This document shows, piece by piece, positions 2,855 through 64,000 of a stretch of 64,000 nucleotides of DNA. The position numbers and the translations under genes are program-made. The notes under the pieces were generated by a model that did no database searches, was not told the origin of the DNA, and was given only the letters and a program-made list of their open reading frames with translations. The stretch is from a virus: positions 44,286 to 108,285 of IMG/VR virus record IMGVR_UViG_3300031368_000001; one strand, 5' to 3'. Every line of letters starts with the position of its first letter. Within the stretch, counting starts at the first letter, position 1.

Positions 2855-2897
2855 GTTTATATACAGATATTTTTCTGGTTAATACTGTGCGTTATAC
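2855..2897 (+). mobile_element. attI-like primary recombination site A heading the left cassette array
   Basis: GTTTATATACAGATATTTTTCTGGTTAATACTGTGC/GTT; 36/39 identical to the reverse complement of 62076-62114; GTTATACGC (2891-2899) is the exact reverse complement of GCGTATAAC (3107-3115) closing cassette 1. Confidence 0.75.
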
Positions 2898-3108: not shown

Positions 3109-3167
3109 GTATAACCATGCCCCTGAAGCCAACAGCAAATAGCTGCGGCTTACCGGCGGCGTTAGGA
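3109..3167 (+). repeat. attC site A1
   Basis: GTATAAC-CATGCCCCTGAAGCC...GGCTTACCGGCGGC-GTTAGGA; nearly the same sequence as attC 61865-61923 (-). Confidence 0.88.
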
Positions 3168-3174: not shown

Positions 3175-3444
3175 ATGAGTGTTGTCACAGATATTATTTT
3201 GGTTACTGCTATTGAGGATGGCGCATATAGACCATCATTCGACTTAGTTAAAGTCGACCAATACGCAGGCGGAGGCAAGGCGGTACAGTGCGATGTGTTT
3301 ATGTCAGCCGTTAACTACTTGGTTTTAGAGGATTTACTTGATTGGTTCAAGTCTGTAAGATGGGAATATCCAGAACAGGTGCAACTTTTTGTTAAAGGCG
3401 AACACGACGACAAGTTTGCTGTGTACTGCCCTGAAAACTCCTAA
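3175..3444 (+). CDS. cassette A2 hypothetical protein
   Basis: 89-aa ORF; cassette starts GTTAGGAGT and ends ACTCCTAAC (9-bp perfect complement); the stop codon lies in the R'' box. Confidence 0.75.
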   Translation: MSVVTDIILVTAIEDGAYRPSFDLVKVDQYAGGGKAVQCDVFMSAVNYLVLEDLLDWFKSVRWEYPEQVQLFVKGEHDDKFAVYCPENS

Positions 3445-3505
3445 CCAATCGTTCAACAACCGACCGCCGATACAGCCCTGTGGCGGGTTAACTCAAACGT
3501 TAGGT
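3439..3505 (+). repeat. attC site A2
   Basis: TCCTAAC...CCGCC..GGCGG GTTAACTCAAAC GTTAGGT hairpin. Confidence 0.85.
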
Positions 3506-3669
3506 GGCAAGCATGAGAAAGCCTTTGACAGGGCATAGGCCATATCCGAGTGAAAGGATAGTACAGCCCATGGATAAGGCATCACACATGCAAGTCTGGT
3601 TGGCTATAACTATTATTGGCAATTAGCATTGCTGGTAGTTTAGGCAGTTCGATTCTGCCATTGCCACCT
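3503..3669 (+). ncRNA. ORF-less cassette A3 encoding a structured RNA with tRNA-like acceptor stem and T-arm
   Basis: GGTGGCAA/TTGCCACC terminal stem; GGCAG-TTCGATT-CTGCC T-arm; nested stems GCATG/CATGC, GCCTT/AAGGC, GGGC/GCCC, TATCC/GGATA. Confidence 0.6.
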
Positions 3670-3727
3670 AATAAATCCCTGAACCAGACGCCATAAAGCT
3701 CGGCGCTGGTTAGCTCAAGCGTTAAGG
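3666..3727 (+). repeat. attC site A3
   Basis: ACCTAAT...AACCAG-CGCC...GGCG-CTGGTTAGCTCAAGC-GTTAAGG. Confidence 0.82.
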
Positions 3728-3736: not shown

Positions 3737-3895
3737 ATGAAAATGTCAGTAAAAGAGTTTGATTCATTGACAAAGAGAGATTTTGACAATGGAGCGGTTA
3801 GGGATGCTATTCGCAATAGCTTAAAAGAGTGTGAAAAATTGCTTGCCTCCCAACAAGTCGTTGAAGCAGACCGCGCTAATCGCACGACTGATTAA
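3737..3895 (+). CDS. cassette A4 hypothetical protein (52 aa, not in ORF track)
   Basis: AAGGAGG RBS immediately after GTT 3721; MKMSVKEFDSLTKRDFDNGAVRDAIRN...; reads into the attC. Confidence 0.65.
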   Translation: MKMSVKEFDSLTKRDFDNGAVRDAIRNSLKECEKLLASQQVVEADRANRTTD

Positions 3896-3909
3896 CTCAG
3901 GCGTTATAA
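3848..3909 (+). repeat. attC site A4
   Basis: TCCCAAC-AAGTCGTTGAAGCAGAC...TGATTAACTCAGGC-GTTATAA. Confidence 0.75.
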
Positions 3910-4171: not shown

Positions 4172-4189
4172 CAATAAGGAGGAAAAACC

Positions 4190-5407: not shown

Positions 5408-5587
5408 ATGAATACTTACATAGGCACTTACCAGGATATGATAGAAAGAACTGTAGAGCTGATCCTTGCCGCGGCAGAAAAAATTCATAATAAAGATGCT
5501 ATAAGTCGGATTTACACGGCCAACAGAGAGGTTGACACAAAAATTGGCAATATTATGGAGAATATCAGAAAGAAGAAGAGATCATGA
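5408..5587 (+). CDS. hypothetical protein
   Basis: ORF 5327-5587 in track; internal ATG (MNTYIG) is the more plausible start. Confidence 0.5.
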   Translation: MNTYIGTYQDMIERTVELILAAAEKIHNKDAISRIYTANREVDTKIGNIMENIRKKKRS

Positions 5588-5799
5588 CTAAACAGGAAAA
5601 GCGTAAGTACTGCATCGGCTGTAGAGACAATTTCTACAACGGCAATAATCCATATGGCATTAAGGAATGCTGGAATCTTAAAGATGCAAAATTCGTGAAA
5701 AGAAAAAAGATTCCTATAGATTTGAGCCCACCTTATGATCATATAAAAAAACAGAAAGTTTTGAGCTGCTATGGCCAAAAGGGGTATGTATATTGGTAG
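5584..5799 (+). CDS. small Cys-rich phage protein
   Basis: KYCIGCRDNFYNGNNPYGIKECW motif; ATGA-coupled. Confidence 0.7.
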   Translation: MTKQEKRKYCIGCRDNFYNGNNPYGIKECWNLKDAKFVKRKKIPIDLSPPYDHIKKQKVLSCYGQKGYVYW

Positions 5800-5802
5800 T
5801 TA

Positions 5803-5897
5803 GGTGGTAAATGCTGCTTATAAGCAGAGGGTCAGCTTGTATCTGACGTTTGATAGTAAACAAAACTATCATGCAGGGTTAAATCTGTATACCACCT
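5803..5897 (+). ncRNA. ORF-less cassette encoding a tRNA-like cloverleaf (TGT in anticodon position, long variable arm)
   Basis: GGTGGTA/TACCACC acceptor; CTGCT-TATA-AGCAG D-like arm; GTCAG-CTTGTAT-CTGAC anticodon arm; TGATAGT/ACTATCA extra arm; TGCAG-GGTTAAAT-CTGTA T-like arm; flanked by GTTA/TAAC. Confidence 0.65.
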
Positions 5898-5951
5898 AAC
5901 CAACCCACTAAGCTCGATAGCTAAAATTGCTGGTTAATTCAAGCGTTAGAT
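5894..5951 (+). repeat. attC site after the tRNA-like cassette
   Basis: ACCTAAC...CTGGTTAATTCAAGC-GTTAGAT; right arm resembles attC A3. Confidence 0.75.
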
Positions 5952-5968
5952 TCATCAAGGAGGTAAAC

Positions 5969-6166
5969 ATGGAAATAGACGAAATTATAAATAACTTGGG
6001 CAAAAAAATATCAACTCCAAAAGGAAATCAATTATTAGCTGGTTTTCAAATTGCAGTGTTAATGGAAAACAATAAATTAAAAGCATATCCTCAATCAATA
6101 TCATTAATCTGTTGGTCAGATAATGGTGGAAAATATATGCATTGGGCAATTGATTGTAAAAAATAA
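5969..6166 (+). CDS. cassette hypothetical protein
   Basis: AAGGAGGT RBS, MEIDEII..., stop codon within AAATAAC. Confidence 0.65.
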   Translation: MEIDEIINNLGKKISTPKGNQLLAGFQIAVLMENNKLKAYPQSISLICWSDNGGKYMHWAIDCKK

Positions 6167-6221
6167 CAAGCCGGTTGAGTCTAACGCTCATAAACTCGCG
6201 TGTCTTACCTCACCATTATAC
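6161..6221 (+). repeat. degenerate attC site
   Basis: AAATAAC-AAGCCGGTTGAG...CTTACCTCACC-ATTATAC (GTT mutated to ATT). Confidence 0.5.
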
Positions 6222-7710: not shown

Positions 7711-7979
7711 AGACCAAAAAAGTACTGGTGAGGAGGTTAAAAATGGCAACTAAACGTAATGTGGGTTTTATCCCTATATTTAGAAAGAAGGATGGTGCTG
7801 TGTATTGCAGACCCTCTCCTATTTTTAGTGATAAGCGATCGGCCAGGATAGGTGTAGCAAAAAAAGGATGGTTGGACAAAGATAATTTTTTAACTATAGG
7901 CAAGGTGGTATTCAGAACGGAGGCAGAAAATAGTGCGGAGGGTTAACGTATAAAAAATGCTCGAATTATGAACTATGAA

Positions 7980-9323
7980 TTATGAACTGAACGACTCTCT
8001 CCACACTGCATCGAAAGAGCGATACCAGACGCGGAGATGCATTTGCTTGACAGTTCTAAGTTCGTTACGAAAACCAAGGGTTCTTAATATTCGGCCTACA
8101 TCCTTACGAGTAATCCTTTCTTTCTCTGCATTAGCCATATTAAGAAGAGTCTCCATACGAAGATAAATAACTTCACCATTCACCACAATTCTACTACCTA
8201 TCCATTTGATATCCTTCATCACACCTTCTGAATAAACTTCTGAATTAATTAATCTTAAAATTAATCCAGTTAATGTCTCATCCATGGTAAGCTGAATAAT
8301 TTCAGCTTCAGCCAAAGCTTTATTAACCATGTTTTCCCATGTTAGCTGTTTTACTGGTTTTGGAATCCTACCGGCTAGCTCACAAAATTTAATTTTAAAC
8401 ATGGAAAAAATAACCAATTCGTTTGTATTCATCTCAACTGATTCATCACTATGATTAGCTAAAAAAACTCTATATTTTCTTGCGCTATCGGGTGGAGGAT
8501 ATTTCAAAATTTGAATTTTACTAATCTTTTCACCAACAGTTTTCCCCATTGCTTCTCGACCTTCTCGATCAGCAACTGATTTTATAGTACGTTTAATTTC
8601 TTTCCAGTCTAAAGGAGGAGTATTTCTTTCATTCCAATTCTCAAGAATTATTTCAGTTTGTGTAATATCACCATTAAAAATTCGTAAATAATAACCAGCA
8701 AGCTTGGTACAAACAGCATTTCGACTACCTTCCTTTACGCCCATAAGAGCTTCCTGTACCCAACCTTCAGGATTTTTTGAAACTCCGGTTATTCCCTGAT
8801 CGGCTACAAGCTTATCCTTAACATCACTTGGCAAATCCATAAGATCATCAAGGTCCATCTCAATAGGATCAATATCCCATTTATACTGAGTGCCATTAGG
8901 ATGAATAGAAGGAGCTACTACAATATATCCTCCATCAGCACGAACATCCACATCAGGGAATAAACCAACTCTATTCTGATATTTTTGGTCTCGAGGATGT
9001 TTAAATAAAAGATGAAGAGATCCTTTTTTGCCTGTGGTTTGAGTAATAGTACCGTGAAGGTCGCCAAAGGCCGCAATATAATTCTCACGACCTATTTGTG
9101 AATCTAAATCTAATACAATAAGATCCGAAACAAAACCAGTAACAAGACCAATATTAGCATCAGGCCATTTTTTCCACCAATGTTTTATTTGATCATCTGT
9201 TGCTTTCTCTTTTTGAAATTTTTCCCATGTTTTTAGCATAGGACTTTTTTCTCCAGGCCGAATTGGAAAAACAGACCATCCCAAACGAGCATATGCTAAA
9301 GCATACTCAGCTAAAGTTTTCAC
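7980..9323 (-). CDS. bifunctional DNA primase/polymerase (Prim-Pol + PriCT)
   Basis: ALAYARLGWSVFPI..K.P, ANIGLVTG..SDLIVLDLD, LHLLFK, DVRADGGYIVVAPSIHP, EGSRN...PPL..KEI; GTG start with AAGGAGG RBS. Confidence 0.92.
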   Translation of the reverse strand: MKTLAEYALAYARLGWSVFPIRPGEKSPMLKTWEKFQKEKATDDQIKHWWKKWPDANIGLVTGFVSDLIVLDLDSQIGRENYIAAFGDLHGTITQTTGKKGSLHLLFKHPRDQKYQNRVGLFPDVDVRADGGYIVVAPSIHPNGTQYKWDIDPIEMDLDDLMDLPSDVKDKLVADQGITGVSKNPEGWVQEALMGVKEGSRNAVCTKLAGYYLRIFNGDITQTEIILENWNERNTPPLDWKEIKRTIKSVADREGREAMGKTVGEKISKIQILKYPPPDSARKYRVFLANHSDESVEMNTNELVIFSMFKIKFCELAGRIPKPVKQLTWENMVNKALAEAEIIQLTMDETLTGLILRLINSEVYSEGVMKDIKWIGSRIVVNGEVIYLRMETLLNMANAEKERITRKDVGRILRTLGFRNELRTVKQMHLRVWYRSFDAVWRESFSS

Positions 9324-45307: not shown

Positions 45308-45525
45308 GGCATAACCGATGGTGTTGATTTAGAAGTTGATCGAGCTTCAGCATAAATACATCCAAAATCTGGATCAATAAAAAATCCTTCGCAGTAGACA
45401 AGATGAATTAATCCAGATTCACCACGTATTTTGGGATTTATACAGTCCCATTTAGTATCAGGGTTTTTACCATCAGGGTCTGATAAATCATTTGACTTAT
45501 AGAATCTACAATCCTTACATTTCAC
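45301..45525 (-). CDS. small Cys-rich protein
   Basis: MKCKDCRFY...PDFGCI. Confidence 0.6.
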   Translation of the reverse strand: MKCKDCRFYKSNDLSDPDGKNPDTKWDCINPKIRGESGLIHLVYCEGFFIDPDFGCIYAEARSTSKSTPSVMPW

Positions 45526-48500
45526 TTACTTACTACCTCCTCACCGCTCTTTCCTGGCAAATAGTGTATCTTACCTTTTTTATCTATAATCTTTGCTTGA
45601 AATACATGATCTTTTATGGCCTGCCGTTCTATCTCATCTATAGTCTGAGGTTTCTTGTTTGTTATCCCGAGCATCCTTGGCGCCCATGCACTTAAATCAA
45701 AAGTTTTACTTCTGGCGTCATACGTGACATTGATTGTCTCAGCCTCAATAAGAATTCCAGATCCTTCGGCTGGATTTTCTTTTGTACTAAACGATTTCCC
45801 TACATGTACAGCTTTTTTTCCATTAATTTCTCGAGTATCCTTTTCTTCAATAACTCTATTGCCAGCCAGGATACCATATTCAAGGTTATACACCTCTTTT
45901 GTTTTAGTTTCAAGTGAATTCAACACAGTTGCGGTAAAAATAGTACTTACATGATATTTTATCCAAAGATTCTTTCTCCTATTTTTCAGGTCATAGGAAG
46001 AGGAGGCCTGTTTTGCTACATTTCCTTCAGAACCGTCTAACTTCCTCAATCTTTCCGTCTCTTTTTTCAATTCCTCTCGATTTTCATTTTTTGTATGTGG
46101 AATCAAATTCCAATTATGTTTCGGATCTGGAAGTTCAGTTTTTTGCGGAAAGTTTAATTTTTGCAGCAGCTCCCGGCGTTCTTCAAACGGGTTTTTATGA
46201 ATATCTTTATCGTAAAAAATCATGTCATAGACATTAAGAATAATACCATCTTCATTAGGATTTATTTTATGGATATTACCAGCTGCAACTTCGCGAGGAT
46301 AGTGCTGACCATCTTCCCACCATTCTGCTTCAGCTAAGAGAATCATATCATGCCCAGGAGATAACTTTTTGGCTTCTTCAATAGTCTGAGGGAAAGAACT
46401 AGTTTCGTCAACACCATCCTCTGTATAAACTATTACTTTACCATCTTTCGAGATGTGCCATTCTGTGTTTATACCATCGGCCTTCCTGGAAGAATTATGC
46501 GCTATAACTCCAGGAATATAACTTTCATCTTCAGTTTGGATGTTAAAAAGTTCTTCCTTATTTCTTGAAAGAAATTCGATGTCTAATATCGGAATCCAAA
46601 AATACTCTTCATCATCCCACCATTTCTGATAAGATCTTAATGGAGGATCTTTGATTTCTGGCCATTTAATTCGTTCAATTTGTTTTCCAGTTACTACAAC
46701 TTCCCATCCACCCAGAGAGCTACTTTTATAGCCATTCAGTTCAAAACTTTTAGGTGAAGTTCGATATTTTACAGCTAGAAGGTTTAATTGATTTAGTAGT
46801 ACCAAAAGTTGATTAGCAATAGTTTCTGAATGAGTTGAAAAACGAAAACCCGAGGCATGTAATGCACCATCACCTCGCCAATATCCATATAGAAATGCTA
46901 AAAGTTGTTCTTTAGAGAGATGAAATACGAAATCTGGAATTTTTTTATTTCGAGCACCAGTATTAAACAATTTGGCAAACGCCCTTGAGAGAACTGTTGA
47001 ATTAAGCTGTATTCTACAAGCATGATCTAAATAATAAATCTTTGGAGAACGAAAATATTTCTCACATAAATAACTTGTTTCTTCAATTAAATCAGTTTCA
47101 TGTAGACCAAATGAAAACCCAATACCTTTTCCTCCCCCTGCATCTCCTTCAGCTAAATATAAACCAAACAGCCTATAGAGATCAGATTCTCCGTGAATTC
47201 TAAAATTAAAAAAATCAATAACTTCATTTTTTTGAATATAACCCTTGCCTCGAGTTAAACTTTTCAATCCAGATATTTTTGCGAAATTAAAAGAGAATTT
47301 TTTTATTTGATTCCTGATTTTTGGTATAGCAAGAAAATCACCAGTTTCAAGAGAATTAGCTTCTATCCACTTAGCTTTATAATTTTTATATCGATGCTGA
47401 CATCCGTACTTCTGCTCACCACAATTTTTTCTACAGACAAGATGTTTACGATTAGACCATGAACATTTTTGAGATTTGATTGCCAAAAATTTGTGATCAG
47501 CAGAGCAGATAAGTGGATCTTGTTGATTTAATAATTTAATTTTTCGTAGAGAGCGATCATCTATAGTTGAAAATATCCCTAACACTTCTTGCAATTTTCC
47601 AGACTTGGAATAAACTTTATCACCAATTTGTATCTCTTGAATTTTTTTGAATTTTTTGCCCCAGACTATTGTATCTCTATGAAAACAATATACAGGAAAT
47701 TGGTCATCAGTCCAGAGTGAAAGAAAGGATTCAAGCGATTGAGCTTGACCTGGCAAAAATCCGCGTTTTGGCTTCATGGCTAAAATAAACTCATTAAAAG
47801 TAACTTTATCATTTTTTGCTGCTTTGTTTGCTTCAGCTTGTTGCTTATTAGTATTCTTTGTTCTTAGTTTTATCTCAGCTTTCACATCCAACTCTCCGAC
47901 ATCTAACTCTTCCATCTTCACAATCTCTGCATCAGGAATTCTTTCCATGATTAGACGATAAAGTGGAAGATAGCTTGTAAACGGGCTCATCCCTCCTTTT
48001 TCTTCTGTAAGTAATTGTAATCTATTTTGTAAATTTTTGGGAAACATTCGATGAATTCTAAATTCAATAATTCGTTTAAGTTCCTCTTCAGATGGAATAG
48101 TCAAGAGAATATCCGCATCATTCTTTGTTCCTTCCGGATGAGTAATTATTCCTCCGACTATCCATGATACTGGATCACATACCTCAAAATCTTTGAAGTA
48201 AGGTTCAATATCTTTAAGTTGTATTACCGTTCCTAATTTTTCTCCACTGGGACCAACCGGGGCGTACTCTGCATCTTTCTCCGGTAAAGGCAAAATTTCT
48301 TTAACTTTATCGTGGTTAATTTTTTCAATTTGGTAAATAGCTTTTTCTTTATGATTATCACACACTGGAATAAAAGCTCGTCCTTCTGCCCAAACAATTG
48401 CTAGTGTAGCAGACTTGCTGCAGTATTTGCATTTATGCGGTCTTTGCAAAGAACTCTCTCGAAATGTATGCTCAGTTGGAATAATTGGTAATGTCTTAAT

Positions 48501-48737
48501 TTTCGCTATCTCACTCAGCATTTTTGCTTCAAGATCGAGATCAGTTTCTTTAAATGGCAAAGACTTTTTTCGTTTTTTGAGCTCTGCTTTAATTAACAGA
48601 AATTTATTTATAATTTTTTCATCCTGGGAATTAAGATGATCAGCTTTCCATTTAGTATAATCTTCACGGAGTTTCTCAACCTCTGCTCTTAGTTGGGTGA
48701 CTGACTTTTTAGTGTCTGATAATTCATCAAGATTCAT
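45522..48737 (-). CDS. multidomain ATP-dependent DNA ligase-like protein (Zn finger + minimal nucleotidyltransferase-like + ligase adenylation/OB) containing an intein
   Basis: After splicing: FPVY|SSRKADG (motif I), LLAEA (III), VYDMI (IIIa), SEGNVAK (IV), WIKY (V); N-terminal CKYC...CDNH and VGGI...NDADILL. Confidence 0.8.
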   Translation of the reverse strand: MNLDELSDTKKSVTQLRAEVEKLREDYTKWKADHLNSQDEKIINKFLLIKAELKKRKKSLPFKETDLDLEAKMLSEIAKIKTLPIIPTEHTFRESSLQRPHKCKYCSKSATLAIVWAEGRAFIPVCDNHKEKAIYQIEKINHDKVKEILPLPEKDAEYAPVGPSGEKLGTVIQLKDIEPYFKDFEVCDPVSWIVGGIITHPEGTKNDADILLTIPSEEELKRIIEFRIHRMFPKNLQNRLQLLTEEKGGMSPFTSYLPLYRLIMERIPDAEIVKMEELDVGELDVKAEIKLRTKNTNKQQAEANKAAKNDKVTFNEFILAMKPKRGFLPGQAQSLESFLSLWTDDQFPVYCFHRDTIVWGKKFKKIQEIQIGDKVYSKSGKLQEVLGIFSTIDDRSLRKIKLLNQQDPLICSADHKFLAIKSQKCSWSNRKHLVCRKNCGEQKYGCQHRYKNYKAKWIEANSLETGDFLAIPKIRNQIKKFSFNFAKISGLKSLTRGKGYIQKNEVIDFFNFRIHGESDLYRLFGLYLAEGDAGGGKGIGFSFGLHETDLIEETSYLCEKYFRSPKIYYLDHACRIQLNSTVLSRAFAKLFNTGARNKKIPDFVFHLSKEQLLAFLYGYWRGDGALHASGFRFSTHSETIANQLLVLLNQLNLLAVKYRTSPKSFELNGYKSSSLGGWEVVVTGKQIERIKWPEIKDPPLRSYQKWWDDEEYFWIPILDIEFLSRNKEELFNIQTEDESYIPGVIAHNSSRKADGINTEWHISKDGKVIVYTEDGVDETSSFPQTIEEAKKLSPGHDMILLAEAEWWEDGQHYPREVAAGNIHKINPNEDGIILNVYDMIFYDKDIHKNPFEERRELLQKLNFPQKTELPDPKHNWNLIPHTKNENREELKKETERLRKLDGSEGNVAKQASSSYDLKNRRKNLWIKYHVSTIFTATVLNSLETKTKEVYNLEYGILAGNRVIEEKDTREINGKKAVHVGKSFSTKENPAEGSGILIEAETINVTYDARSKTFDLSAWAPRMLGITNKKPQTIDEIERQAIKDHVFQAKIIDKKGKIHYLPGKSGEEVVSK
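46494..47687 (-). mobile_element. intein with LAGLIDADG homing endonuclease (398 aa)
   Basis: Starts CFHRDTIV, block B CSADHKFL, LFGLYLAEGD and FLYGYWRGDG motifs, ends LFNIQTEDESY...AHN followed by Ser. Confidence 0.92.
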
Positions 48738-54961: not shown

Positions 54962-55315
54962 TTATATTATATTTTCTCTCCATAATTCTTCTTCCTTTAT
55001 AATATGCTTCCCCGCATGACACTTCTCACACAAAACCTCACTGTTACTAACATCCCATAATTCTCTACACTTCCTGGCATCTTTCAAAGTTAATATTTTT
55101 TTTTCATCAATTATTTTACTCAATGATTTTTTATGATGAACCTGAATTAACTTTCTTCTCCCGCAGCTCTGACATTTACCTCGATCTCTTTCCAGTATTT
55201 TTACCGCCCATTCTACATACTCCCTGGAGAGGCGAATTTTGCCTGCTATACTCCTGGTTTTATTCAGAGTGTGTGAATCAAGAATTCGGATTCCGTGTTT
55301 ATTGAAAACGAGCAT
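54962..55315 (-). CDS. HNH endonuclease
   Basis: W...ILERDRGKCQSCG....QVHHK...N.EVLCEKCH...H. Confidence 0.88.
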   Translation of the reverse strand: MLVFNKHGIRILDSHTLNKTRSIAGKIRLSREYVEWAVKILERDRGKCQSCGRRKLIQVHHKKSLSKIIDEKKILTLKDARKCRELWDVSNSEVLCEKCHAGKHIIKEEELWRENII

Positions 55316-55317
55316 GT

Positions 55318-55785
55318 TTAATAAAATATTATTCTCAATAGATCTTTAGCTGTCATATTTCGTTCTTTAGGATCAGTAATTTTGTATCTATTATTCAAAA
55401 ACATTGTCATGTCATTAATGTAGATACGCTCAAGATCTTTATCAGTTTCAAGGGCATCGTGTATTACTTTTCGGGCATTCGTGATATCCTGTTTTTCTAC
55501 AGAGTTTTTCAGATTAGAAAATCTCATTTTAGAAACTGTCTGATTTATGATTTTCTGTGCTGTTTCTACTGCTTTTAATACCGATTCCTTTCCGTGCTTG
55601 AACCCATGCTCAAAAGCTGTTTTGTAATGAAATTCAATAACGGCTAGTTTCTTTTCTTCTGTGCTAAAAGGTTCAGCTGGTTCTTCACCTGCTATCAATA
55701 CTCCTTTTACATAATTCCAGTGTTCATCACATAATTTTTTAACTTCTGCTTTTAAAGTTTCTGGGTCTTTAGTTTTCTCTTCCAT
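55318..55785 (-). CDS. hypothetical protein
   Basis: 155-aa ORF with GGGGAG RBS. Confidence 0.65.
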   Translation of the reverse strand: MEEKTKDPETLKAEVKKLCDEHWNYVKGVLIAGEEPAEPFSTEEKKLAVIEFHYKTAFEHGFKHGKESVLKAVETAQKIINQTVSKMRFSNLKNSVEKQDITNARKVIHDALETDKDLERIYINDMTMFLNNRYKITDPKERNMTAKDLLRIIFY

Positions 55786-55802
55786 ACTAATTCTCCCCTT
55801 CT

Positions 55803-56036
55803 TTATCCTACTACAAATCTATTTCGTCTTAGCATATCTTCATTTTGTTCATCCGTAAACTTATCCCATCCTACCTTATTACGTATTTCCTCAGCTTCAA
55901 TAGGGTCTGCTGATTCAACATAATTCGCTAAGGCTTCACGGTAATCTTCTTCTGTTTCTTCTGAATCAAGCTTTCTGAATTTGTGAACTCTTGCAGCCAT
56001 TTTTAGGCTCTTCATATCTGAAAAATTCATAGGCAT
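55803..56036 (-). CDS. hypothetical protein
   Basis: 77-aa ORF in the operon. Confidence 0.6.
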   Translation of the reverse strand: MPMNFSDMKSLKMAARVHKFRKLDSEETEEDYREALANYVESADPIEAEEIRNKVGWDKFTDEQNEDMLRRNRFVVG

Positions 56037-56435
56037 AATTTAATTTTCCTTTTTAAATATTGTCTCAACAAAATTTAATTGTGATAACAACTCTTTGCGA
56101 AGCTCATGCATTTTATCGTATTCTGCTGTAGGGTAATCACTAAGTCCTACTTGACCATAAACAAGTGAGTTATACTTCACGTAGGCCTCAACAAATTCAA
56201 TCAGAACTTCTCCTAATGTCATGTCTTTAGGTTTCATCTCAAAATCCTTTCTTTAACAAAATCATTCGCCATCCAAACAATAATGGTATGTGTTTCTTAT
56301 AACCATAACGCTCAGAAAAAAATAATGGTGTTTGTCCAAAGGCTAGTTCATAATTTTTTTTAATTCGGATCCAGATCAATTTCTGGCTTATGAACCCATA
56401 GAGTAGTTTCCAGTTAAAATCTTTCATAGAGTTTT

Positions 56436-56687
56436 CTAGTATCCTTTTGATATTCTCTGATCACCTCTCCATTCATTTTCGGGTAGCATTTCGCCTATCG
56501 AACCTCGTCGATTATATAACTGAGTAGGTGTTGGCAATCCATGTAGGTAGTTTTCTCTGGTACAAAATTCATAAGCCTTCTCGTATCCCTTATCCCAGAC
56601 CTCAGTGCATTTTTTATGCCAGGTGGAATTGAATCCTGTTCTCTGCCAAGGCCAAATTGTTTTTTTACATGCAAAACATTTATTCAT
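56436..56687 (-). CDS. hypothetical protein
   Basis: 83-aa ORF, CFACKKTIWPWQ. Confidence 0.6.
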   Translation of the reverse strand: MNKCFACKKTIWPWQRTGFNSTWHKKCTEVWDKGYEKAYEFCTRENYLHGLPTPTQLYNRRGSIGEMLPENEWRGDQRISKGY

Positions 56688-56723
56688 AGCTATTTTTCTC
56701 CTCTATCTTATCAAATATTTCCT

Positions 56724-58268
56724 CTACATCCCCCATACCTGTCCTTTTATTCCATAACTATTAAGCAATCCTACACTTTCCTTGGCTCTAGTAATTCCTA
56801 CATAAGCTACCCTGACTTCATCGTAAAATTGTTCTACATTGTTAATACAGCTTCGTAGACATTCCGGTGAGGTTCCCATATCCAACCAGACGTGATCCGC
56901 TTCTCCTCCCTTAACCGAGTGAAAAGTACCTAAAATTACCTTTGGCTCTTCCATCACATCTTCACAGTTCTTTAGCATTTCTCCACTCTGACCAACTAAC
57001 TTAAAAACTTCCTCCAGGGTTTTTTCAAAAGTTAAAAATTCTTTCGTAAATATTCCAGATGATATTACTCCGAACATATCTATCTCTTTATCGAGCTTCA
57101 TATCTTCAACCTGAGTCTTCATTCCTCTTATAATATTTCCATCTGCAATCACGTTCCGAGTCATATGTATAAAATCATTGGAGTTTATTACCTCTCCTCT
57201 TCCTAATTTTACATAGTTCCTGGCTGCTCTCCATACCTTAGTATTTAAAGGATTATAGACCATATCTCTAGGTCTATAGGGATTGTGCCACATAACTCTA
57301 TTTCTCAACAGATAATGTCGCCAGCGGTTAAGATGATAATTACATCTCCCCAAAATCATATGAGTTCCATCTAAACTCAAATCTGGTTCTGTGCATCTTA
57401 TTACTGAGCCCTCTATCCTAGTTGGTTCATATGTTACATCTTCCCTATTTTTTATTTGACTGATTACCTCCATGGCATACTCATGAACTTTTTTAGGCAC
57501 CCTGTAGGATTTACCTAGAATCTTCATCCATGTATGATTTAAGTTTACAAAGGCTTCGGGTACTGCCCCCGCGAATCTCAGAATTGCCTGATCAGAATCA
57601 CCTACATAGACCGTTGAAACTGTATCTTTTCCCCACATTTCTAATAAATTTACAGATAATCTGGACATATCCTGTGCTTCATCTACCATAAGGATATCTA
57701 TATCTGGCCCAAGCTTTGATTCTAAAGTTTTTTCGAGCATTCCAGTAAAGTCTGTATAATCATTTTCTCTCATCCAGTTCTGCCAATCCGTGTACATACT
57801 TTTAAGACGTAGATCCGACCATTCTTTGAAAGGTACCATCTGATGTCTCAGCATTTGAATTTCAGCAAACCGGCGTTTATTCTGTTCTGGGGTATGTTTG
57901 TCGGTATCTTCCTTAAATTCATCCCTCTCAGTTATTTCTACATTGAGAGGCATTCTCCATTCAGGGTAAGCTTCATTGAATTCCTTGATCTTTTTGTCTG
58001 CTACCTTTTCTTTTTTTAGCTCAAGAAGATTAAAACATGTGGAGTGTATGGTACGAATATTTTTAGCAGCTTCTCTGGGCAGGCCCGTCTGTTTTTTTAC
58101 CCGGTCTCTCATTTCTTCGATTGCTGCATTGGTTAGAGATACGGCACCTATTCGTTCAGGATCATATCTTTTAGCGGCCTGCTCGATGAGTTTAAGAAGG
58201 TAGGTGGTCTTGCCTGTTCCGGGGGCACCTACGACTTTAGCTCTTTTGTGGGTTTTGTGATGGGTCAT
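56724..58268 (-). CDS. UvrD/Rep-like superfamily 1 helicase
   Basis: GAPGTGKT, SLTNAA, TIHS, VDEAQD, VGDSDQAI..F.GA, SYR, TFHSVKGGEAD, YVGITRAK. Confidence 0.93.
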   Translation of the reverse strand: MTHHKTHKRAKVVGAPGTGKTTYLLKLIEQAAKRYDPERIGAVSLTNAAIEEMRDRVKKQTGLPREAAKNIRTIHSTCFNLLELKKEKVADKKIKEFNEAYPEWRMPLNVEITERDEFKEDTDKHTPEQNKRRFAEIQMLRHQMVPFKEWSDLRLKSMYTDWQNWMRENDYTDFTGMLEKTLESKLGPDIDILMVDEAQDMSRLSVNLLEMWGKDTVSTVYVGDSDQAILRFAGAVPEAFVNLNHTWMKILGKSYRVPKKVHEYAMEVISQIKNREDVTYEPTRIEGSVIRCTEPDLSLDGTHMILGRCNYHLNRWRHYLLRNRVMWHNPYRPRDMVYNPLNTKVWRAARNYVKLGRGEVINSNDFIHMTRNVIADGNIIRGMKTQVEDMKLDKEIDMFGVISSGIFTKEFLTFEKTLEEVFKLVGQSGEMLKNCEDVMEEPKVILGTFHSVKGGEADHVWLDMGTSPECLRSCINNVEQFYDEVRVAYVGITRAKESVGLLNSYGIKGQVWGM

Positions 58269-58290
58269 AAGAATTAACTTTCAGTGTTTT

Positions 58291-58659
58291 CTAGTTCTTT
58301 AGGTTACTCTTTTCTTTTTTTTTACTGCTTCCTACTTCCTTAATATATTTTTCAAGCACTTGTGCAATAGCATCAGGGATAGACTTTACTAAGCCTTTTC
58401 CTACATAAAGAGGCTTATCATCCATAATATCTTTTAATTGTTTAATAATATCTTCAAGAGGGATACTATTCCTGAGAGCTAACGAGCAAAGTCTGCCTAT
58501 TGTTTCAGATTTTGCCATTAAACTCCCACCACTTTTTCCCATAAATGCAAATACTTCAAATGGTTTATCCTCTTTAAAAGTTACGTTTACATAAAGATTG
58601 CCATAGCCTGTCTTGATTTTAGTTGTTTTACTTGGCAATGTTTCTGGTCTATCTTCCAT
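58291..58659 (-). CDS. stand-alone TSCPD domain (C-terminal module of class II ribonucleotide reductase)
   Basis: RPETL...T.KIKTGYGNLYV.V...KPFEVF..MGKSG...GRLCSLALR...SIPDAIA. Confidence 0.85.
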   Translation of the reverse strand: MEDRPETLPSKTTKIKTGYGNLYVNVTFKEDKPFEVFAFMGKSGGSLMAKSETIGRLCSLALRNSIPLEDIIKQLKDIMDDKPLYVGKGLVKSIPDAIAQVLEKYIKEVGSSKKKEKSNLKN

Positions 58660-58703
58660 TACTTATCTCCTAACGCCGCTAATAACCTGCCCAAAATAGC
58701 AGT

Positions 58704-58892
58704 TTATTTTGGGTCAAAGTTCATTTGTTTGTTAGATGGATGATTAAGAAGTTTTTCAGTGCTTTTCACTATCTGCTGAAAAAAATTAAGCAAAAATTCT
58801 AAATCCCTTTTGGTAAACTGGCCTTCTTTCATTGCCACCATGATTTGTCTACAAGCATTTTCTATAATTTCTGCACTTATCATATTGTCCAT
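58704..58892 (-). CDS. cassette B11 hypothetical protein
   Basis: Cassette GTTAGATGGA...TCCATCTAAC (10-bp perfect complement); the ORF reads into the attC. Confidence 0.65.
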   Translation of the reverse strand: MDNMISAEIIENACRQIMVAMKEGQFTKRDLEFLLNFFQQIVKSTEKLLNHPSNKQMNFDPK

Positions 58893-58945
58893 CTAACGCC
58901 TGAGATAACCCGCCTGCGATTAGCAGATCGGAGTTCAGAGACTGG

Positions 58946-59167
58946 TTATGCATCTTTGCAACTTTCAATAAGAACCATTCTAAGCGCGTCCATTTCCTGA
59001 GTAGCATGGTAATAGAACTGTTTGATTTTTGCTAACAGTCTTTCTTCAACAAATTGCATCTGAATTTGTACTTCTTTGCTACCACGAAAATCACCTATTT
59101 CCTCTATTTTCCGTTCAAGACTGATTCGCTGTCTCACATATTGTTCATATGCTTCTTTATCAAACAT
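58946..59167 (-). CDS. cassette B10 hypothetical protein
   Basis: ATTATGCA...TGCATAAC ends; stop codon in R''. Confidence 0.65.
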   Translation of the reverse strand: MFDKEAYEQYVRQRISLERKIEEIGDFRGSKEVQIQMQFVEERLLAKIKQFYYHATQEMDALRMVLIESCKDA

Positions 59168-59208
59168 GGTCTGGAACCTTCTTTCTTAAATCTGCATAAT
59201 GCCAAGCA

Positions 59209-59493
59209 TCACTCGCCAGCGTTTTTACTGGTCGAGTGAATGCTATCGTTAGCGACATTTTTATGGTGCTCGCTAAATTGCTCAAACAAAACATCAAGTT
59301 TGCTCTCCATTTTTCTATCACAATCCTCGCACAGATAAGTATGTCGCCTCTTATTTTCGGTCGACACAAGATGATAATGCTGCGAGCATGCTTCCTTTCC
59401 GCAGGACCAGCACGTAAGGATGGTATGCAAATCGTCTTCTCTTGCACCGCAAATATCACAATATTTAACTTCAACTTCCTCTTTTTTCCTCAT
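59209..59493 (-). CDS. cassette B9 zinc-finger protein
   Basis: CDIC...CWSC...CSQH...CEDC; AAGGAGG RBS. Confidence 0.7.
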   Translation of the reverse strand: MRKKEEVEVKYCDICGAREDDLHTILTCWSCGKEACSQHYHLVSTENKRRHTYLCEDCDRKMESKLDVLFEQFSEHHKNVANDSIHSTSKNAGE

Positions 59494-59570
59494 CTACTAT
59501 CCTCCTTTTAAGGATTGCTAACGCCTGACCTAACCCGCCCAGCTATGCTGGGTCGGAGTTGAGTGAATTG

Positions 59571-59783
59571 TTATAAAGATTTTTTTAGTTTTATCATTGA
59601 TGAAACACCTATTAAAAAAGGCATAACTGCACCAACAAAAGGCATCCATATTGCATCCCACCAAGTAATTAAATAAGGATCTTCTGTCATTGTACCGACT
59701 TTAGCAACCAGTAAACCATAGAAAAAAGCACACCAAGCTATTCCTAAAATAAATGTTGGCCAATCTACTCTATCTTTAAACAT
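59571..59783 (-). CDS. cassette B8 two-TM membrane protein
   Basis: Two hydrophobic helices; 16-bp perfect end complementarity GTTATAAAGATTTTTT. Confidence 0.7.
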   Translation of the reverse strand: MFKDRVDWPTFILGIAWCAFFYGLLVAKVGTMTEDPYLITWWDAIWMPFVGAVMPFLIGVSSMIKLKKSL

Positions 59784-59858
59784 TATTTAAACCTCCTAAA
59801 AAATCTTTATAACGCCGCCGGTAAGCCGCGCTTTATTGCGTCGGCTGGAGTAGCCTTG

Positions 59859-60404
59859 TTATATTCGTTTTTGTCCATAATCCTTCTTTTTGATTTTTCC
59901 CATTCTTCCATCAGGGTGGTGAAATACGATTCCTTCAATGTCCTTATCTTTCATGAAATCGGATATACCTTCAAATGTTCTCTGCACGGTTTTAAATACT
60001 TGAGCTTTCTCATGTTTCACAAGGGCATGAACATTATATCCCTCTGGATTCCCTTGAATTTTTGGCCCGACAAGCTCATATGTGCCATCAGATAGCTTTT
60101 CTGAGAAAGTTTCCATGTGCCACCGGTCTTCTTTAAGGCTTCGATCTACTGGAACCCAACCAACACGCTTCCCTGTATTTTCATCAAATTCTTCTTCAAT
60201 AAAATTATTTGGTGCAACCCTACCCTTTTTTACTTCTCTGCGTTTGAAATAATTCCCGTTTTCTATTTTTACGCATGTGCCGTCATATTTTCGAGTCGCC
60301 ACGCCTTCACCATTAAAAACCCATTCACAATCAAGATGATGTTCATGAAGGATTTCACGCATATTCTCAGGGTTCCTTTTAAAGATTGTTGGTATTTTCC
60401 TCAT
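59859..60404 (-). CDS. cassette B7 RNA-ligase-like protein (DUF5565/RLIG1-like)
   Basis: ATRKYDGTC (motif I KxDG), TYELVGPKIQGNP, IEGIVFHH..G.M.KIK. Confidence 0.75.
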   Translation of the reverse strand: MRKIPTIFKRNPENMREILHEHHLDCEWVFNGEGVATRKYDGTCVKIENGNYFKRREVKKGRVAPNNFIEEEFDENTGKRVGWVPVDRSLKEDRWHMETFSEKLSDGTYELVGPKIQGNPEGYNVHALVKHEKAQVFKTVQRTFEGISDFMKDKDIEGIVFHHPDGRMGKIKKKDYGQKRI

Positions 60405-60482
60405 GACTCTTCCTCCTTTCAAAGAATATAACGCTTGAGCTAACCAGCCGTGTGATTAGCACGGTCTGAGTTGAGTGATTCG

Positions 60483-60707
60483 TTATAATTGTCCAGCATC
60501 TTGTAATATTTCTGGTGTTACATCTTTTTTCTCAATATACTCACACCGGAGATACCCCCCTCCTTGGTCAATTCTATTTACCAATATAAACCTACAGCTT
60601 TCTTTGCTCAAGGCTGTTTCAATAAGTTTATGTTCAATGTATGCATTGGCCGGAGTAATGTCCCATTGACTCAATGCAGCCCATCCGTATCTTTCACCTG
60701 TATTCAT
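60483..60707 (-). CDS. cassette B6 hypothetical protein
   Basis: GTTATAATT...AATTATAAC ends; GGAGG RBS. Confidence 0.65.
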   Translation of the reverse strand: MNTGERYGWAALSQWDITPANAYIEHKLIETALSKESCRFILVNRIDQGGGYLRCEYIEKKDVTPEILQDAGQL

Positions 60708-60751
60708 TTTGACCCTCCCTAAATTATAACGCCTGCGATCAGCCGCAGCGG

Positions 60752-60952
60752 TTAGCTGTCGGCTTCAGAGGCCTGGTTATCTGTTTTCTCTATCAATACT
60801 TTTATCTCGTCTACACGTCGCTTGACATCTAAATCGCCTTTATATGACAACGTACCATAGAATGTTGGGTCAAGTCCTTTGGGTACAATCTTTACCCAAT
60901 CTGGAACAAATGACATTAAATATTTGCATGCCTCCAATAGATCGCTTTGCAT
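60752..60952 (-). CDS. cassette B5 hypothetical protein
   Basis: GTTATCTGT...ACAGATAAC ends; AAGGAG RBS before MQSDLL. Confidence 0.65.
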   Translation of the reverse strand: MQSDLLEACKYLMSFVPDWVKIVPKGLDPTFYGTLSYKGDLDVKRRVDEIKVLIEKTDNQASEADS

Positions 60953-61017
60953 TATTTTAATCTCCTTTACAGATAACGCCTGAGCTAACCCACCCAAAAT
61001 AGCGTAGCTATTGAGGG

Positions 61018-61239
61018 TCAGAGTTCAGGGGCCTGGTTATGTGATTCAATTATTTCTTTGATACCATTCAGAACATGCCTCATATTACTTGCTGAAATTG
61101 CATCAAGGGTCATACCGTGCTGTTTCAAAACTTTATGCGCTTTCTTAAAATCAGGCTCAGGGAAAACGCTTAATGGATACGCATTAATCCAAGTTTTAAT
61201 TTTACGCATCTTATCTTGTAATTCTTCTAATTCGCTCAT
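61018..61239 (-). CDS. cassette B4 conserved phage hypothetical protein
   Basis: W.NAYPL.VFPEPD..KA..VL...GMTLDAISAS.MRH. Confidence 0.7.
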   Translation of the reverse strand: MSELEELQDKMRKIKTWINAYPLSVFPEPDFKKAHKVLKQHGMTLDAISASNMRHVLNGIKEIIESHNQAPEL

Positions 61240-61312
61240 TTTCCCTCCGTATAACGCCTGAGCTCACCAGCCAGATTAGCAAAGCTATATCTGGTCGGAG
61301 TTCAGGTATTTG

Positions 61313-61522
61313 TTATATTCCATCTTTCCATTGCTTATAATGTAAATCAACTTTCTTTTGGTCATACTCGAAAGAATTTATAGGAGTTCTACGAAGCTGC
61401 ATAAGTTTTATTAATATATGCTCATACGCAGTCTCAGCTTTCCCTGTTCCGTTATCCATTACAGAACATACTATGTCGATAATTTCTTCATCATTACTAC
61501 GGTCAATATAATTAACGCTCAT
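61313..61522 (-). CDS. cassette B3 hypothetical protein
   Basis: GGAGG RBS; stop codon in R''. Confidence 0.65.
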   Translation of the reverse strand: MSVNYIDRSNDEEIIDIVCSVMDNGTGKAETAYEHILIKLMQLRRTPINSFEYDQKKVDLHYKQWKDGI

Positions 61523-61603
61523 AACCTACCTCCAATTCATTAGAAATTTAACGCCTGACCTAACCAGCGGGCGTTTTACTAGCCCGTCTGGTTTAGGGAT
61601 TTG

Positions 61604-61849
61604 TTAGCCACGATTTTGTGGCCTCTCCTGATTGTCTTTTTCAATAGCTTCCATCAAATTTTGTAATGACTTTCGAGTATTTAATGATTGCCCGCCACCC
61701 GACAAAGTACAGAATTCAGCATTTTGTATGAAATGCTTTGATTCTTTTCGGTCGGGAATGATGGATACAATCATATCTCCATCATCTTGCTGACATATAA
61801 CCAACCGCCCTGTTGGACTCATATCTTCGTATCGTTCAACTTGCTTCAC
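61604..61849 (-). CDS. cassette B2 hypothetical protein
   Basis: GTG start after AAGGAGG; REDMSP.G.L....DDGD.IV...EFC..GGG.S. Confidence 0.65.
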   Translation of the reverse strand: MKQVERYEDMSPTGRLVICQQDDGDMIVSIIPDRKESKHFIQNAEFCTLSGGGQSLNTRKSLQNLMEAIEKDNQERPQNRG

Positions 61850-61889
61850 TTTATCCTCCTTGGTGCCTAACGCCGCCGATAAGCCGCAG

Positions 61890-62057
61890 CTATTCACTGT
61901 CGGCTTCAGTGGCTTGGTTAGATTTTTCTTCTTTTTCTACACATTCAAGGCATTTCTCTTCATTAAAATCGAATTCATCTGCCTCAAAAAGCTCCCAACA
62001 TTCAGTACAACGATATAATTTTGGAATGCCGGTATCATTAAACCAATTAGTCGCCAT
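61890..62057 (-). CDS. cassette B1 zinc-ribbon protein (55 aa, not in ORF track)
   Basis: MATNWFNDTGIPKLYRCTECWE...KCLECVE; AGGAGG RBS; reads into the attC. Confidence 0.6.
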   Translation of the reverse strand: MATNWFNDTGIPKLYRCTECWELFEADEFDFNEEKCLECVEKEEKSNQATEADSE

Positions 62058-62071
62058 AATTACCTCCTAAA

Positions 62072-62114
62072 ACCCAACGTACATTATTAACCAGAAAAAT
62101 ATCTATATATAAAC
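62072..62114 (-). mobile_element. attI-like primary recombination site B heading array B
   Basis: Minus strand GTTTATATATAGATATTTTTCTGGTTAATAATGTAC/GTT, 36/39 identical to 2855-2893. Confidence 0.75.
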
Positions 62115-62139
62115 TAAGATATAAAAAACTTACTCATAT

Positions 62140-62490
62140 TTATTTTTCATCGACCCACCTATCATTTTCATCTTTCACCTCAATTTTCAAATTCTCAGGT
62201 TTCATCGCTTTATCGATTCTTTGTTCCATAGTCTTGCCTGAATCAATTTCATAAGCAAGCCAATTAAGCCACAACTTGAATTTTCCTGAAGCAGCAAGCC
62301 GACGTAAAGCAAGACCTTTATTACGGTACTGACTCCTATCTGTGTGACTTTCGCCAATAGCGCCAGAAGCTCGGTGAATTATACGAACTGCTGAATCTGT
62401 CTTATTAATTTTTTGTCCACCATGTCCGCTGGACTTAAAGGTCTGAACGATAAAATCCTTTTTAGTGAGTGTAATCAGATGTTCTCTCAT
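62140..62490 (-). CDS. peptide chain release factor-like protein (RF-1 GGQ domain; ArfB/PrfH-like)
   Basis: FKSSGHGGQKINKTDSAVRIIH..SG......RSQ.RNK..AL.RL. Confidence 0.88.
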   Translation of the reverse strand: MREHLITLTKKDFIVQTFKSSGHGGQKINKTDSAVRIIHRASGAIGESHTDRSQYRNKGLALRRLAASGKFKLWLNWLAYEIDSGKTMEQRIDKAMKPENLKIEVKDENDRWVDEK

Positions 62491-62639
62491 TTTTATCTCT
62501 TCTCAATAACCATCTTAAGTCCTTTTGTTATCGCGTCTTGAATCGATTTGATTTTTCTTTCTTCCTGTAGTCTTCTAAGCTTAAGCCACATTTCATGAGT
62601 AATTCTTACCGTGAGGGGATGTTTGTTATTAGACATATA

Positions 62640-62840
62640 TTATCGAGGCTCCGTCCGATAAGGCTGAAGCTGAGGTGTTGTAATAATTTCTTCTAGCCAA
62701 TAAACAAGAATGCTATCATCCTCAATAGTGTATTCTGTTCCGCAATGTTTACACTTCACTTTCTTATCATCAATATTCCATGCAATAAACTTTCCACACT
62801 TACACTTATTTCGTCTGTCTTTCATAATTTTATTCCTCAA
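62640..62840 (-). CDS. zinc-ribbon protein
   Basis: CKCG...CKHCG. Confidence 0.55.
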   Translation of the reverse strand: MRNKIMKDRRNKCKCGKFIAWNIDDKKVKCKHCGTEYTIEDDSILVYWLEEIITTPQLQPYRTEPR

Positions 62841-63188
62841 TATTCTTTAGTATGACAATTCTCACACTCATAATAATATCCACCATATCTAGACTGATAG
62901 TGCATAAATCCACCACACTCGCATTGCTTTCCAAATGCATCACAGCAGCCGGTCGGTCTATTCGTTGTATACTTCATTTCATCCATTATGAGTGTTACGA
63001 CTTTATCTTTATTTTTAGTTTCTTTATCCCATAATTTTTTCTAATTTCTATCCTATCACATCTGATACCATGGTGCAATAAAAAAGTGAAATTTTTTTAT
63101 TTTTTTTTAAGTGCTTTTTGCAAAACTGAATCTTGAGCTTTGGAAAATATATTTTCTTTTTTTATCTCTTTTCTTTTTATTATAAAAA

Positions 63189-63416
63189 CTACATACATAT
63201 TTTATCTATTCGTTTTCTTATTTCTTTTAACCTCTCTTGTTCAGGTTGACACTCCACAGGTAATAAATTCTCTGCTGCCTGGATAAGGTCTTGAGCAAAC
63301 AATAACGACTCCTCTTCAGCCATTATCTCTGCTATTTTCTGCAAAAAGGTATCCTGCCAGATGATTATCTTTTTTTTGTTATCTTTTTTCACTTTTTCTA
63401 CTGTGATTGTTATCAT
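63189..63416 (-). CDS. hypothetical protein
   Basis: AGGAGG RBS. Confidence 0.55.
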   Translation of the reverse strand: MITITVEKVKKDNKKKIIIWQDTFLQKIAEIMAEEESLLFAQDLIQAAENLLPVECQPEQERLKEIRKRIDKICM

Positions 63417-63498
63417 GGAGACCTCCTATGAATTTATTGTCACCAATAATTGTGAATTCACGAGTCGACTTTACTGACCTAGCTATTATATAACAGTA

Positions 63499-63684
63499 TT
63501 ACTTCCACCATCTCTTTTTTATTATCTTCACAAACTCTATCTTTCCTCCAACAATCTTACTCATATCTTGCAGTATTCTATTTATTATATCCCACCAACA
63601 ATATTCAGGCCATAATTTTTCTGAAGTTTCATCGAGTTTCTTTACCAGTTTATCCGGGAGTGTTAGTTTGAGTAAGATTTGCAT
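63499..63684 (-). CDS. hypothetical protein, paralog of 16558-16764
   Basis: MQILLKLTLPDK..KKLDETSEKL...CWWDII. Confidence 0.6.
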   Translation of the reverse strand: MQILLKLTLPDKLVKKLDETSEKLWPEYCWWDIINRILQDMSKIVGGKIEFVKIIKKRWWK

Positions 63685-63907: not shown

Positions 63908-64000
63908 AAGAAAAACGCAATATGTCTGACTTGACAATAACTTTATCCACCAACTCGATCTCCGCGTCTGGTATCGCTCTTTCGATGCAGTGTGGAGAGA

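Follow-up and report, generated by a model that had tools for sequence, protein, structure and literature searches.

Two integron-type gene cassette arrays with a common attI-like leader in a large salt-marsh phage

Introduction

Integrons are known as gene-capture devices of bacteria, and the cases found so far in phages are a few small clusters of attC sites, possible vehicles for bacterial cassettes. The DNA analyzed here (the window, 64,000 nucleotides, positions 44,286 to 108,285 of IMG/VR record IMGVR_UViG_3300031368_000001) forms the last 64 kb of a linear contig of 108,285 bp from salt-marsh metagenomes, and an initial annotation had described in it an integron-type cassette array lying among phage genes. 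Does this phage carry genuine integron cassettes and, if so, by what means would they be inserted and exchanged? We conclude that the array is very likely a true integron-type cassette array, one of two in a large phage, served in trans by an IntI-type recombinase that is most likely the IntI of the host.

Results

Two arrays of small genes and attC sites

The annotated array occupies 58668-62114 on the minus strand and comprises 11 attC sites of 58-72 nt, each with one small open reading frame (ORF) of 55-181 aa ahead of it. All 11 of these units exist where the initial annotation had placed them, but it had missed a second array on the plus strand (2855-6221) holding six attC sites, four at 3109-3909 and two at 5894-6221. 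The total therefore amounts to 17 sites in groups of 11, 4 and 2 (named s1-s11 and p1-p6 as in Table 1). A covariance model termed R1, built solely from these 17 sites, recovers these and no others in the window, and the remaining 44 kb of the contig are free of matches. Every minus-strand cassette consists of a single co-oriented ORF followed by its attC site; in 6 of the 11, the TAA of R'' serves as stop codon, and the remaining five ORFs stop within the site. The 14-31 nt ahead of the minus-strand ORFs bear a Shine-Dalgarno sequence, which is found in 13 of the 15 coding cassettes of both arrays. Two of the 17 cassettes, both on the plus strand, are devoid of an ORF.

The sites have the anatomy of attC

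Canonical attC sites carry inverted cores, R'' (RYYYAAC) and R' (GTTRRRY), at their ends. Of the 17 sites, 15 contain TAAC and GTTA; s9 and p6 carry ATT, and the R'' of p3 carries AAT. Covariation supported the hairpins, with 85.5% of cells paired as compared to 31-41% when the partners were slid, 43 double changes and a score that was reached by none of 500 shuffles. Folded as single-stranded DNA, as the initial annotation had suggested, the bottom strands pair in the R box, leave the spacer unpaired and form an L box and a variable loop. The extrahelical bases typical of such folds were found: a T bulges out everywhere, reflecting an A conserved in every one of the 17 sites, and a G bulges from the L box in many sites, though not in all.

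R1 located the aadA1, aadB and catB8 attC sites precisely where one cassette gives way to the next in the class 1 integron of the Providencia plasmid NZ_CP120536.1 (56.8, 49 and 47.5 bits, respectively; E 8e-12 to 2e-9), with four matches in all at E <= 1 in 30 kb. It also found an eight-site array in Thermomonas fusca. An IntI scoring above the TIGR02249 cut-off was present in four of the five genomes with R1 array matches versus none of 14 control genomes. On the grounds of covariation, bottom-strand folds and R1 matches both to class 1 attC sites and to arrays in IntI-bearing bacteria, the sites are, as judged from sequence, canonical attC sites that resemble the 60-nt aadA type, and the integron-type identity first assigned to them is borne out. 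Terminator-like or REP-like hairpins are ruled out by the cassette rule described below and by the class 1 attC matches, and a terminator scan remained at chance level. A generic scan for AAC...GTT hairpins was dropped as too permissive, and a blastn search of one attC site against plasmids returned no match. The GC content of the attC sites is 0.485.

Cassette ends carry the G|TT signature

IntI cuts between the G and the TT of R', and the final R' bases go with the next cassette. The R'' of each cassette should therefore pair with the start of its own cassette and not with the adjacent R'. In cassettes 5-11, the runs of complementarity to the own cassette beyond the G measured 8, 8, 8, 15, 5, 7 and 9 nt, as compared to 3-5 nt for the adjacent R'. 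Summed over the 17 sites, the own-cassette run reached 107 (115 with the p1 start at 2891); the permutations averaged 58 +/- 5.6, and none of the 20,000 attained it. The own start was the best partner among all 17 starts for 11 of the 17 sites, p1 being ranked in this count with a start other than 2891; with its GTT at 2891, the p1 run is 8 nt. The complementarities between R'' and cassette starts quoted in the initial annotation were all correct, and the G|TT signature that it had read from them is real and significant. The cassette of p5 sits at the bare GTT ending an ordinary phage ORF (5584-5799), with no attC before it, and its start and R'' are complementary over 10 nt.

A common leader heads both arrays

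Both arrays start with the same 39-nt leader (Table 1), which is present on the contig in two copies, both at array heads, and nowhere else; the likeness between the copies ends at the GTT. The 3' part of the leader comprises an L'-like box, a 7-nt spacer and an R'-like box, a layout that can be read as a double-stranded attI core. Among 381 fetched loci, the 20-nt core of the leader was limited to the present phage and to contigs bearing the same attC family. A degenerate scan of IMG/VR with this core yielded four further viral contigs (L381-L384), in every one of which an attC array begins directly downstream of the core on the same strand, L381 having two leaders and two arrays. Altogether the core heads attC arrays in seven other contigs (L214, L222/L016, L224 and L381-L384), five of which are IMG/VR viral records.

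In these other contigs as well, the likeness to the leader ends at the GTT. Furthermore, the cassette rule holds for the cassette next to the leader, with a run of 7 in L214, a run of 10 in L222 and 9 of 10 positions in L224. Contigs L214 and L384 share a stretch of 99% identity that begins exactly at G|TT, preceded by the leader in one of them and by an attC site in the other. Because the similarity ends at the GTT, the first cassettes pair and leader and attC interchange at G|TT, the leader appears to behave as an attI site and is a candidate for integrase binding. A sigma-70 consensus is absent from the leader, and a promoter scan gave matches in the region at chance level; a search of IMG/VR with an 18-nt word of the leader returned chance matches only. 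Two further features of the leader were recorded. It occurs in two tandem copies at 528-600 of L384, the second beginning right after the GTT of the first, and a G-N-T triplet precedes it in 9 of 10 copies.

Cassettes and sites are shared between unrelated contigs

The fourth cassette of the minus-strand array, c4, is also the first cassette after a leader in L381 (93% identity in amino acids, about 95% in DNA as judged by eye). L381 is otherwise unrelated to the present phage, and the shared cassette occupies a different array position there. The R'' of c4 complements the cassette start of L381 and not its own start. Likewise, L214 and L222 have two cassettes in common, in a different order. 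Single attC sites (s1, s3 and s11) recur at 88-92% identity in several low-GC contigs bearing different genes: s3 is 89-92% identical to sites in L210, L240, L204 and L224, and s11 is 92% identical to a site in the viral contig L016/L222. In salt-marsh sequencing runs the depth climbs at attC sites, and 46-79% of the contigs compared match the site and then diverge at its boundary; the same attC family therefore flanks many other cassettes of the community. The proposal that the phage acquires and shuffles genes by means of cassettes thus stands in so far as c4 is found elsewhere in an unrelated viral contig, but no gain or loss was seen within the phage's own population.

Two apparent signs of variation were discarded. 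A variant array in run X5 (59% word share) turned out to be low depth, and joints with 20-nt sides, taken at first for deletions in the phage, were other attC sites of the community. A cellular-looking metagenome contig (L231, Ga0315547_1002457) bears two attC sites of the same family, with an ApeA-HEPN defence gene among large cassettes.

The cargo resembles the phage

The GC content of the cassette ORFs is 0.372, as compared to 0.369 for the genome, and their codon usage correlates with that of the backbone at 0.93; the composition of the cargo is the phage's own. Cassette c7 encodes a full-length member of phrog_14301 (RNA ligase, DUF5565; E 4.7e-58; Pfam RLIG1), a family with more than 5,800 relatives. 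No attC was found within 2.5 kb of the RNA ligase gene in 80 other viral loci, and it is therefore an ordinary phage gene elsewhere. No significant Pfam or PHROG family was obtained for the other 14 of the 15 cassette ORFs, among which c11 gave a weak PHROG match (E 0.004). Hence, of the earlier suggestion that the cargo looks like early phage proteins, the RNA ligase does belong to a phage family, but the other ORFs are ORFans that are phage-like in composition only.

The two ORF-less cassettes encode putative structured RNAs. That of p3 has an 8-bp acceptor-like stem and a canonical T-arm (fold z -3.8), and that of p5, 99 nt long, has a long variable arm and a UGU anticodon-like loop (fold z -5.3). 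The acceptor stems of both tRNA-like RNAs overlap the cassette ends, and ARAGORN and Rfam gave no match for either.

A recombinase-like gene in another leader-bearing contig

Between the two outward-facing leader-plus-array units of L381, where an intI would sit, lies a 380-aa ORF (3665-4807, plus strand; protein P0202). It has SAM-like and catalytic domains in the correct order and matches PF00589 (E 1.3e-3), the models for XerC (E 1.8e-8) and for the integron integrase (E 9e-8) and, weakly, IntI4 (2a3v), all of these far below the curated cut-offs. P0202 is predicted to be a divergent Xer/IntI-like tyrosine recombinase. An N6/N4 DNA methylase gene also lies between the array units. No relatives of P0202 were found in the present phage, in the four further viral records with the leader, of which one is 85% complete, or elsewhere in IMG/VR; for PF00589, no leader-bearing viral record reached the search threshold. 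A tblastn search for IntI in the array-bearing metagenome and viral loci was likewise negative.

Phage context and integrity of the contig

The carrier is a large phage. The contig, 77% complete according to CheckV and with a GC content of 0.369, encodes a Mu-type portal, a large terminase, a primase-polymerase (PrimPol) and SNF2 and UvrD helicases. Both arrays have phage genes on either side. The neighbours of the minus-strand array are an RF-1 domain protein, a TSCPD/ribonucleotide reductase-like protein, a UvrD helicase, the terminase and the Mu-type portal, in agreement with the identities first given to the flanking genes and with the statement that the array is co-oriented among them.

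Logan contigs cross the joints between array and phage genes without a single difference (55000-62205 in run X1; 56497-59238 and 60456-63678 in run X2). As these runs may be the source samples, they provide a second assembler and not an independent sample. In X2, the contigs are interrupted at s9 and s6. The final 43 nt of the window (63958-64000) are an exact inverted copy of 7996-8038, at the 3' end of the PrimPol gene region beside the plus-strand array, so that the assembly halts at a repeat; this end lies 1.9 kb upstream of the head of the minus-strand array. Matches of about 89% identity to the RF-1 (62136-62398) and UvrD (57563-57788) genes in runs X1 and X6 indicate that a sister strain co-occurs in the salt-marsh runs. 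Relatives based on UvrD (<=30% identity) bear no attC sites, nor do two portal-based relatives (52-54%) within their short records.

Several other features of the window were noted. Seven overlapping small genes without attC (3923-5799, plus strand) separate the two plus-strand cassette groups, and two ORFs in this interval (4716-4988 and 4985-5212) open with tandem peptide repeats of MTDN type and VRDVNT type. An ORF-free region of about 1 kb (6740-7720), between the plus-strand cassettes and the PrimPol gene, contains repeated short motifs and hairpins and is possibly a replication origin. A 1071-aa protein (45522-48737, minus strand) has both an ATP-dependent DNA ligase domain and a LAGLIDADG domain; an intein or a homing endonuclease fused to the ligase may account for this pairing.

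Table 1. Leaders, attC sites and cassettes of the two arrays, in window coordinates.
Feature	Coordinates	Strand	R1 score (bits)	Cassette ORF	Remarks
attI-like leader, head of minus array	62076..62114	-			crossover GTT 62078-62076; matches plus-strand leader
attC s1 (59 nt), cassette c1	61865..61923	-	57.3	62057-61890, 55 aa	ORF runs into attC
attC s2 (64 nt), cassette c2	61546..61609	-	61	61849-61604, 81 aa	
attC s3 (70 nt), cassette c3	61249..61318	-	59.6	61522-61313, 69 aa	
attC s4 (72 nt), cassette c4	60971..61042	-	51.8	61239-61018, 73 aa	
attC s5 (59 nt), cassette c5	60724..60782	-	59.9	60952-60752, 66 aa	
attC s6 (63 nt), cassette c6	60426..60488	-	61.1	60707-60483, 74 aa	bulged G, A, T on bottom strand
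attC s7 (58 nt), cassette c7	59807..59864	-	51.6	60404-59859, 181 aa	RNA ligase
attC s8 (61 nt), cassette c8	59516..59576	-	60	59783-59571, 70 aa	hydrophobic
attC s9 (61 nt), cassette c9	59194..59254	-	41.1	59493-59209, 94 aa	degenerate, ATT for GTT; ORF Cys-rich
attC s10 (61 nt), cassette c10	58891..58951	-	61.5	59167-58946, 73 aa	
attC s11 (70 nt), cassette c11	58668..58737	-	52	58892-58704, 62 aa	final site
attI-like leader, head of plus array	2855..2893	+			crossover GTT 2891-2893; p1 R'' complements 8 bases after its G
attC p1	3109..3167	+	51.8	2916-3107, 63 aa	
attC p2	3439..3505	+	50.3	3175-3444, 89 aa	own-cassette run 8
attC p3	3666..3727	+	59.2		ORF-less cassette with 169-nt tRNA-like RNA, 3503-3671
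attC p4	3848..3909	+	49	3737-3895, 52 aa	closes first plus-strand group
ORF-less cassette + attC p5 (5894-5951)	5799..5951	+	50		cloverleaf RNA, 5801-5899
attC p6	6161..6221	+	40.6	5969-6166, 65 aa	degenerate (ATT)

Discussion

Site anatomy, membership in one attC family, the G|TT signature, the common leader and the presence of a cassette in another contig are direct observations. Cassettes and an attI-like leader are present, and an intI next to the leader is lacking on the contig, an arrangement that corresponds to the definition of a cluster of attC sites lacking an integron integrase (CALIN). In the mechanism that we propose, the mobile unit would be a cassette that lacks a promoter and comprises a ribosome-binding site of its own, a single small gene or structured RNA and an attC site. 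A tyrosine recombinase of IntI type would cut G|TT of the folded bottom strand, and the cut cassette would be joined either to the leader, acting as an attI-like docking site, or to another attC. Being co-oriented with the flanking phage genes, the arrays would be read through within phage operons. Both kinds of sites are present on the contig and a recombinase is not, and the enzyme would thus be supplied in trans. As to which enzyme acts, when, and whether it still does so on the present phage, we can only infer: the likeliest candidate is a host IntI operating during infection, the main alternative being an enzyme encoded by the phage in the 23% of its genome that is unsequenced.

Several observations weigh against this scheme. 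Searches for tyrosine, serine and Y1 recombinases in the 108-kb contig, which is 77% complete, were negative: TIGR02249, PF00589, PF13495, PF00239 and PF01797 gave no match even at E <= 10, and two IntI proteins used as tblastn queries gave nothing below E 0.04. The IntI for which the initial annotation had proposed a search of the rest of the contig did not turn up in either type of search. The host search gave no identification: the 3' motif of the attC sites occurs in more than 120 very diverse genomes and therefore names no host, the sole named portal relative lies in a metagenome-assembled genome of Candidatus Aminicenantes, and the leader core is absent from the 401 genomes searched in the phylum of genome G006. 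No alternative cassette order was detected within the phage's own population in the runs holding the phage, and hence no sign of current activity. The GTT is lost in two sites (s9 and p6), the first cassette of the minus-strand array fits its leader loosely (7 of 12 positions), and an attC lies directly upstream of the leader in L222 and L224, where the leader is thus not the first element. Finally, the pairs of shared cassettes (c4 with L381, L214 with L384) retain the segment from TT to R'' plus spacer, including the gene, at 95-99% identity, and the inner part of the attC is a different allele. This difference is not predicted by crossover at R' alone; gene conversion or template switching between attC sites is a possible cause.

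The serious competitor is a cassette system served by a divergent Xer/IntI-like recombinase of the phage itself, encoded on the missing part of the genome and possibly just beyond position 64000. We consider this unlikely, albeit well worth keeping in view: the incompleteness of the contig leaves room for it, and P0202, with its Xer/IntI-like matches, is lodged between two array heads. Yet the scores of P0202 are far below curated cut-offs, no relatives of it were found in the present phage, the four other leader-bearing viral records or IMG/VR, and it could be the ordinary lysogeny integrase of L381; moreover, the attC sites are so near to those of class 1 that a standard IntI is expected to accept them. 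Much less probable is a fossil, that is, a bacterial integron block taken up once by illegitimate recombination and now inert, which would agree with the lack of an integrase on the contig, the two decayed sites s9 and p6 and the identical cassette order across the runs compared. Such a single capture accounts poorly for two arrays that each start at the same leader exactly at the GTT, for the recurrence of this leader at array heads in several unrelated phage-like contigs, for cargo of the phage's own composition that includes a phage-family RNA ligase not carried as a cassette in 80 other viral loci, and for the p5 cassette at a bare GTT inside ordinary phage genes.

An assembly chimera of a host integron with a phage, or hairpin repeats unrelated to integrons, can be dismissed almost entirely. 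Repeats do break assemblies, as the 43-nt repeat at the contig end and the breaks of the X2 Logan contigs at s9 and s6 illustrate, but phage genes lie on both sides of both arrays and the Logan contigs of X1 and X2 span the joints without differences. The cassette rule and the class 1 attC matches exclude unrelated hairpins, and the terminator scan was no better than chance. A true cassette array acted upon in trans by IntI is thus the reading that we retain.

Beyond the present phage, we put forward more hesitantly, as something a little short of an even prospect, that unrelated phages of low-GC sediment communities share one dedicated integron platform made of a common leader and attC family with no linked integrase. 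This would constitute a network of cassette exchange from phage to phage rather than accidental carriage, in which cassettes holding phage-adapted genes and tRNA-like RNAs would be moved by host IntI or by a divergent Xer/IntI-like phage enzyme. If true, phages use integron recombination as their own means of swapping accessory genes, the enzyme being borrowed or hidden, which would explain part of their mosaic small-gene regions; leader and attC would furthermore be defined sites, their recombination being open to direct standard assay.

Attachment sites of integron type have precedents in phages. Qi, Rajabal, Ghaly, Tetu and Gillings (2023, PMC9892861) reported 17 CALINs in phages among 10,705 isolate genomes, counting as clusters those with at least two attC sites, and validated five phage attC sites that recombined with attI1 under IntI1. 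The premise of the initial annotation that integrons are not a feature of phages is thus out of date. Like those phage CALINs, the present arrays consist of attC-bounded cassettes in a phage genome with no intI nearby. In contrast to them, 17 sites are found here in two arrays with a conserved leader as insertion point, and leader and attC family extend across several phage-like contigs that are unrelated yet share a cassette. A phage-specific attI-like site in CALINs is not described in the portion of that report consulted, in which we likewise found no account of a conserved attI-like leader of integrase-less arrays in unrelated phage-like contigs, with a shared cassette and phage-native cargo; these aspects appear to be new.

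With the classical integron of NZ_CP120536.1, the arrays have in common the anatomy and sequence of attC, the 60-nt site of aadA1 type scoring as the phage sites do, as well as the orientation of ORF followed by attC, the G|TT crossover and a non-hairpin insertion site at the array head. They differ from it in their residence in a phage and in having two arrays per genome and no intI beside the leader; as for a Pc promoter, the matches of the promoter scan were at chance level. The homogeneous attC family, 88-92% identical across cassettes and contigs with differing cargo, is reminiscent of sedentary chromosomal integrons; here, however, it occurs in short arrays on phage-like contigs of about 39% GC and not on a bacterial chromosome. 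Lastly, the integron integrase can insert cassettes outside att sites (bioRxiv 10.1101/2022.09.11.507474), and the cassette at 5799-5951, which follows the bare GTT of an ordinary phage ORF, resembles such an insertion; it differs in lying in a phage genome, and its insertion is deduced from sequence only.

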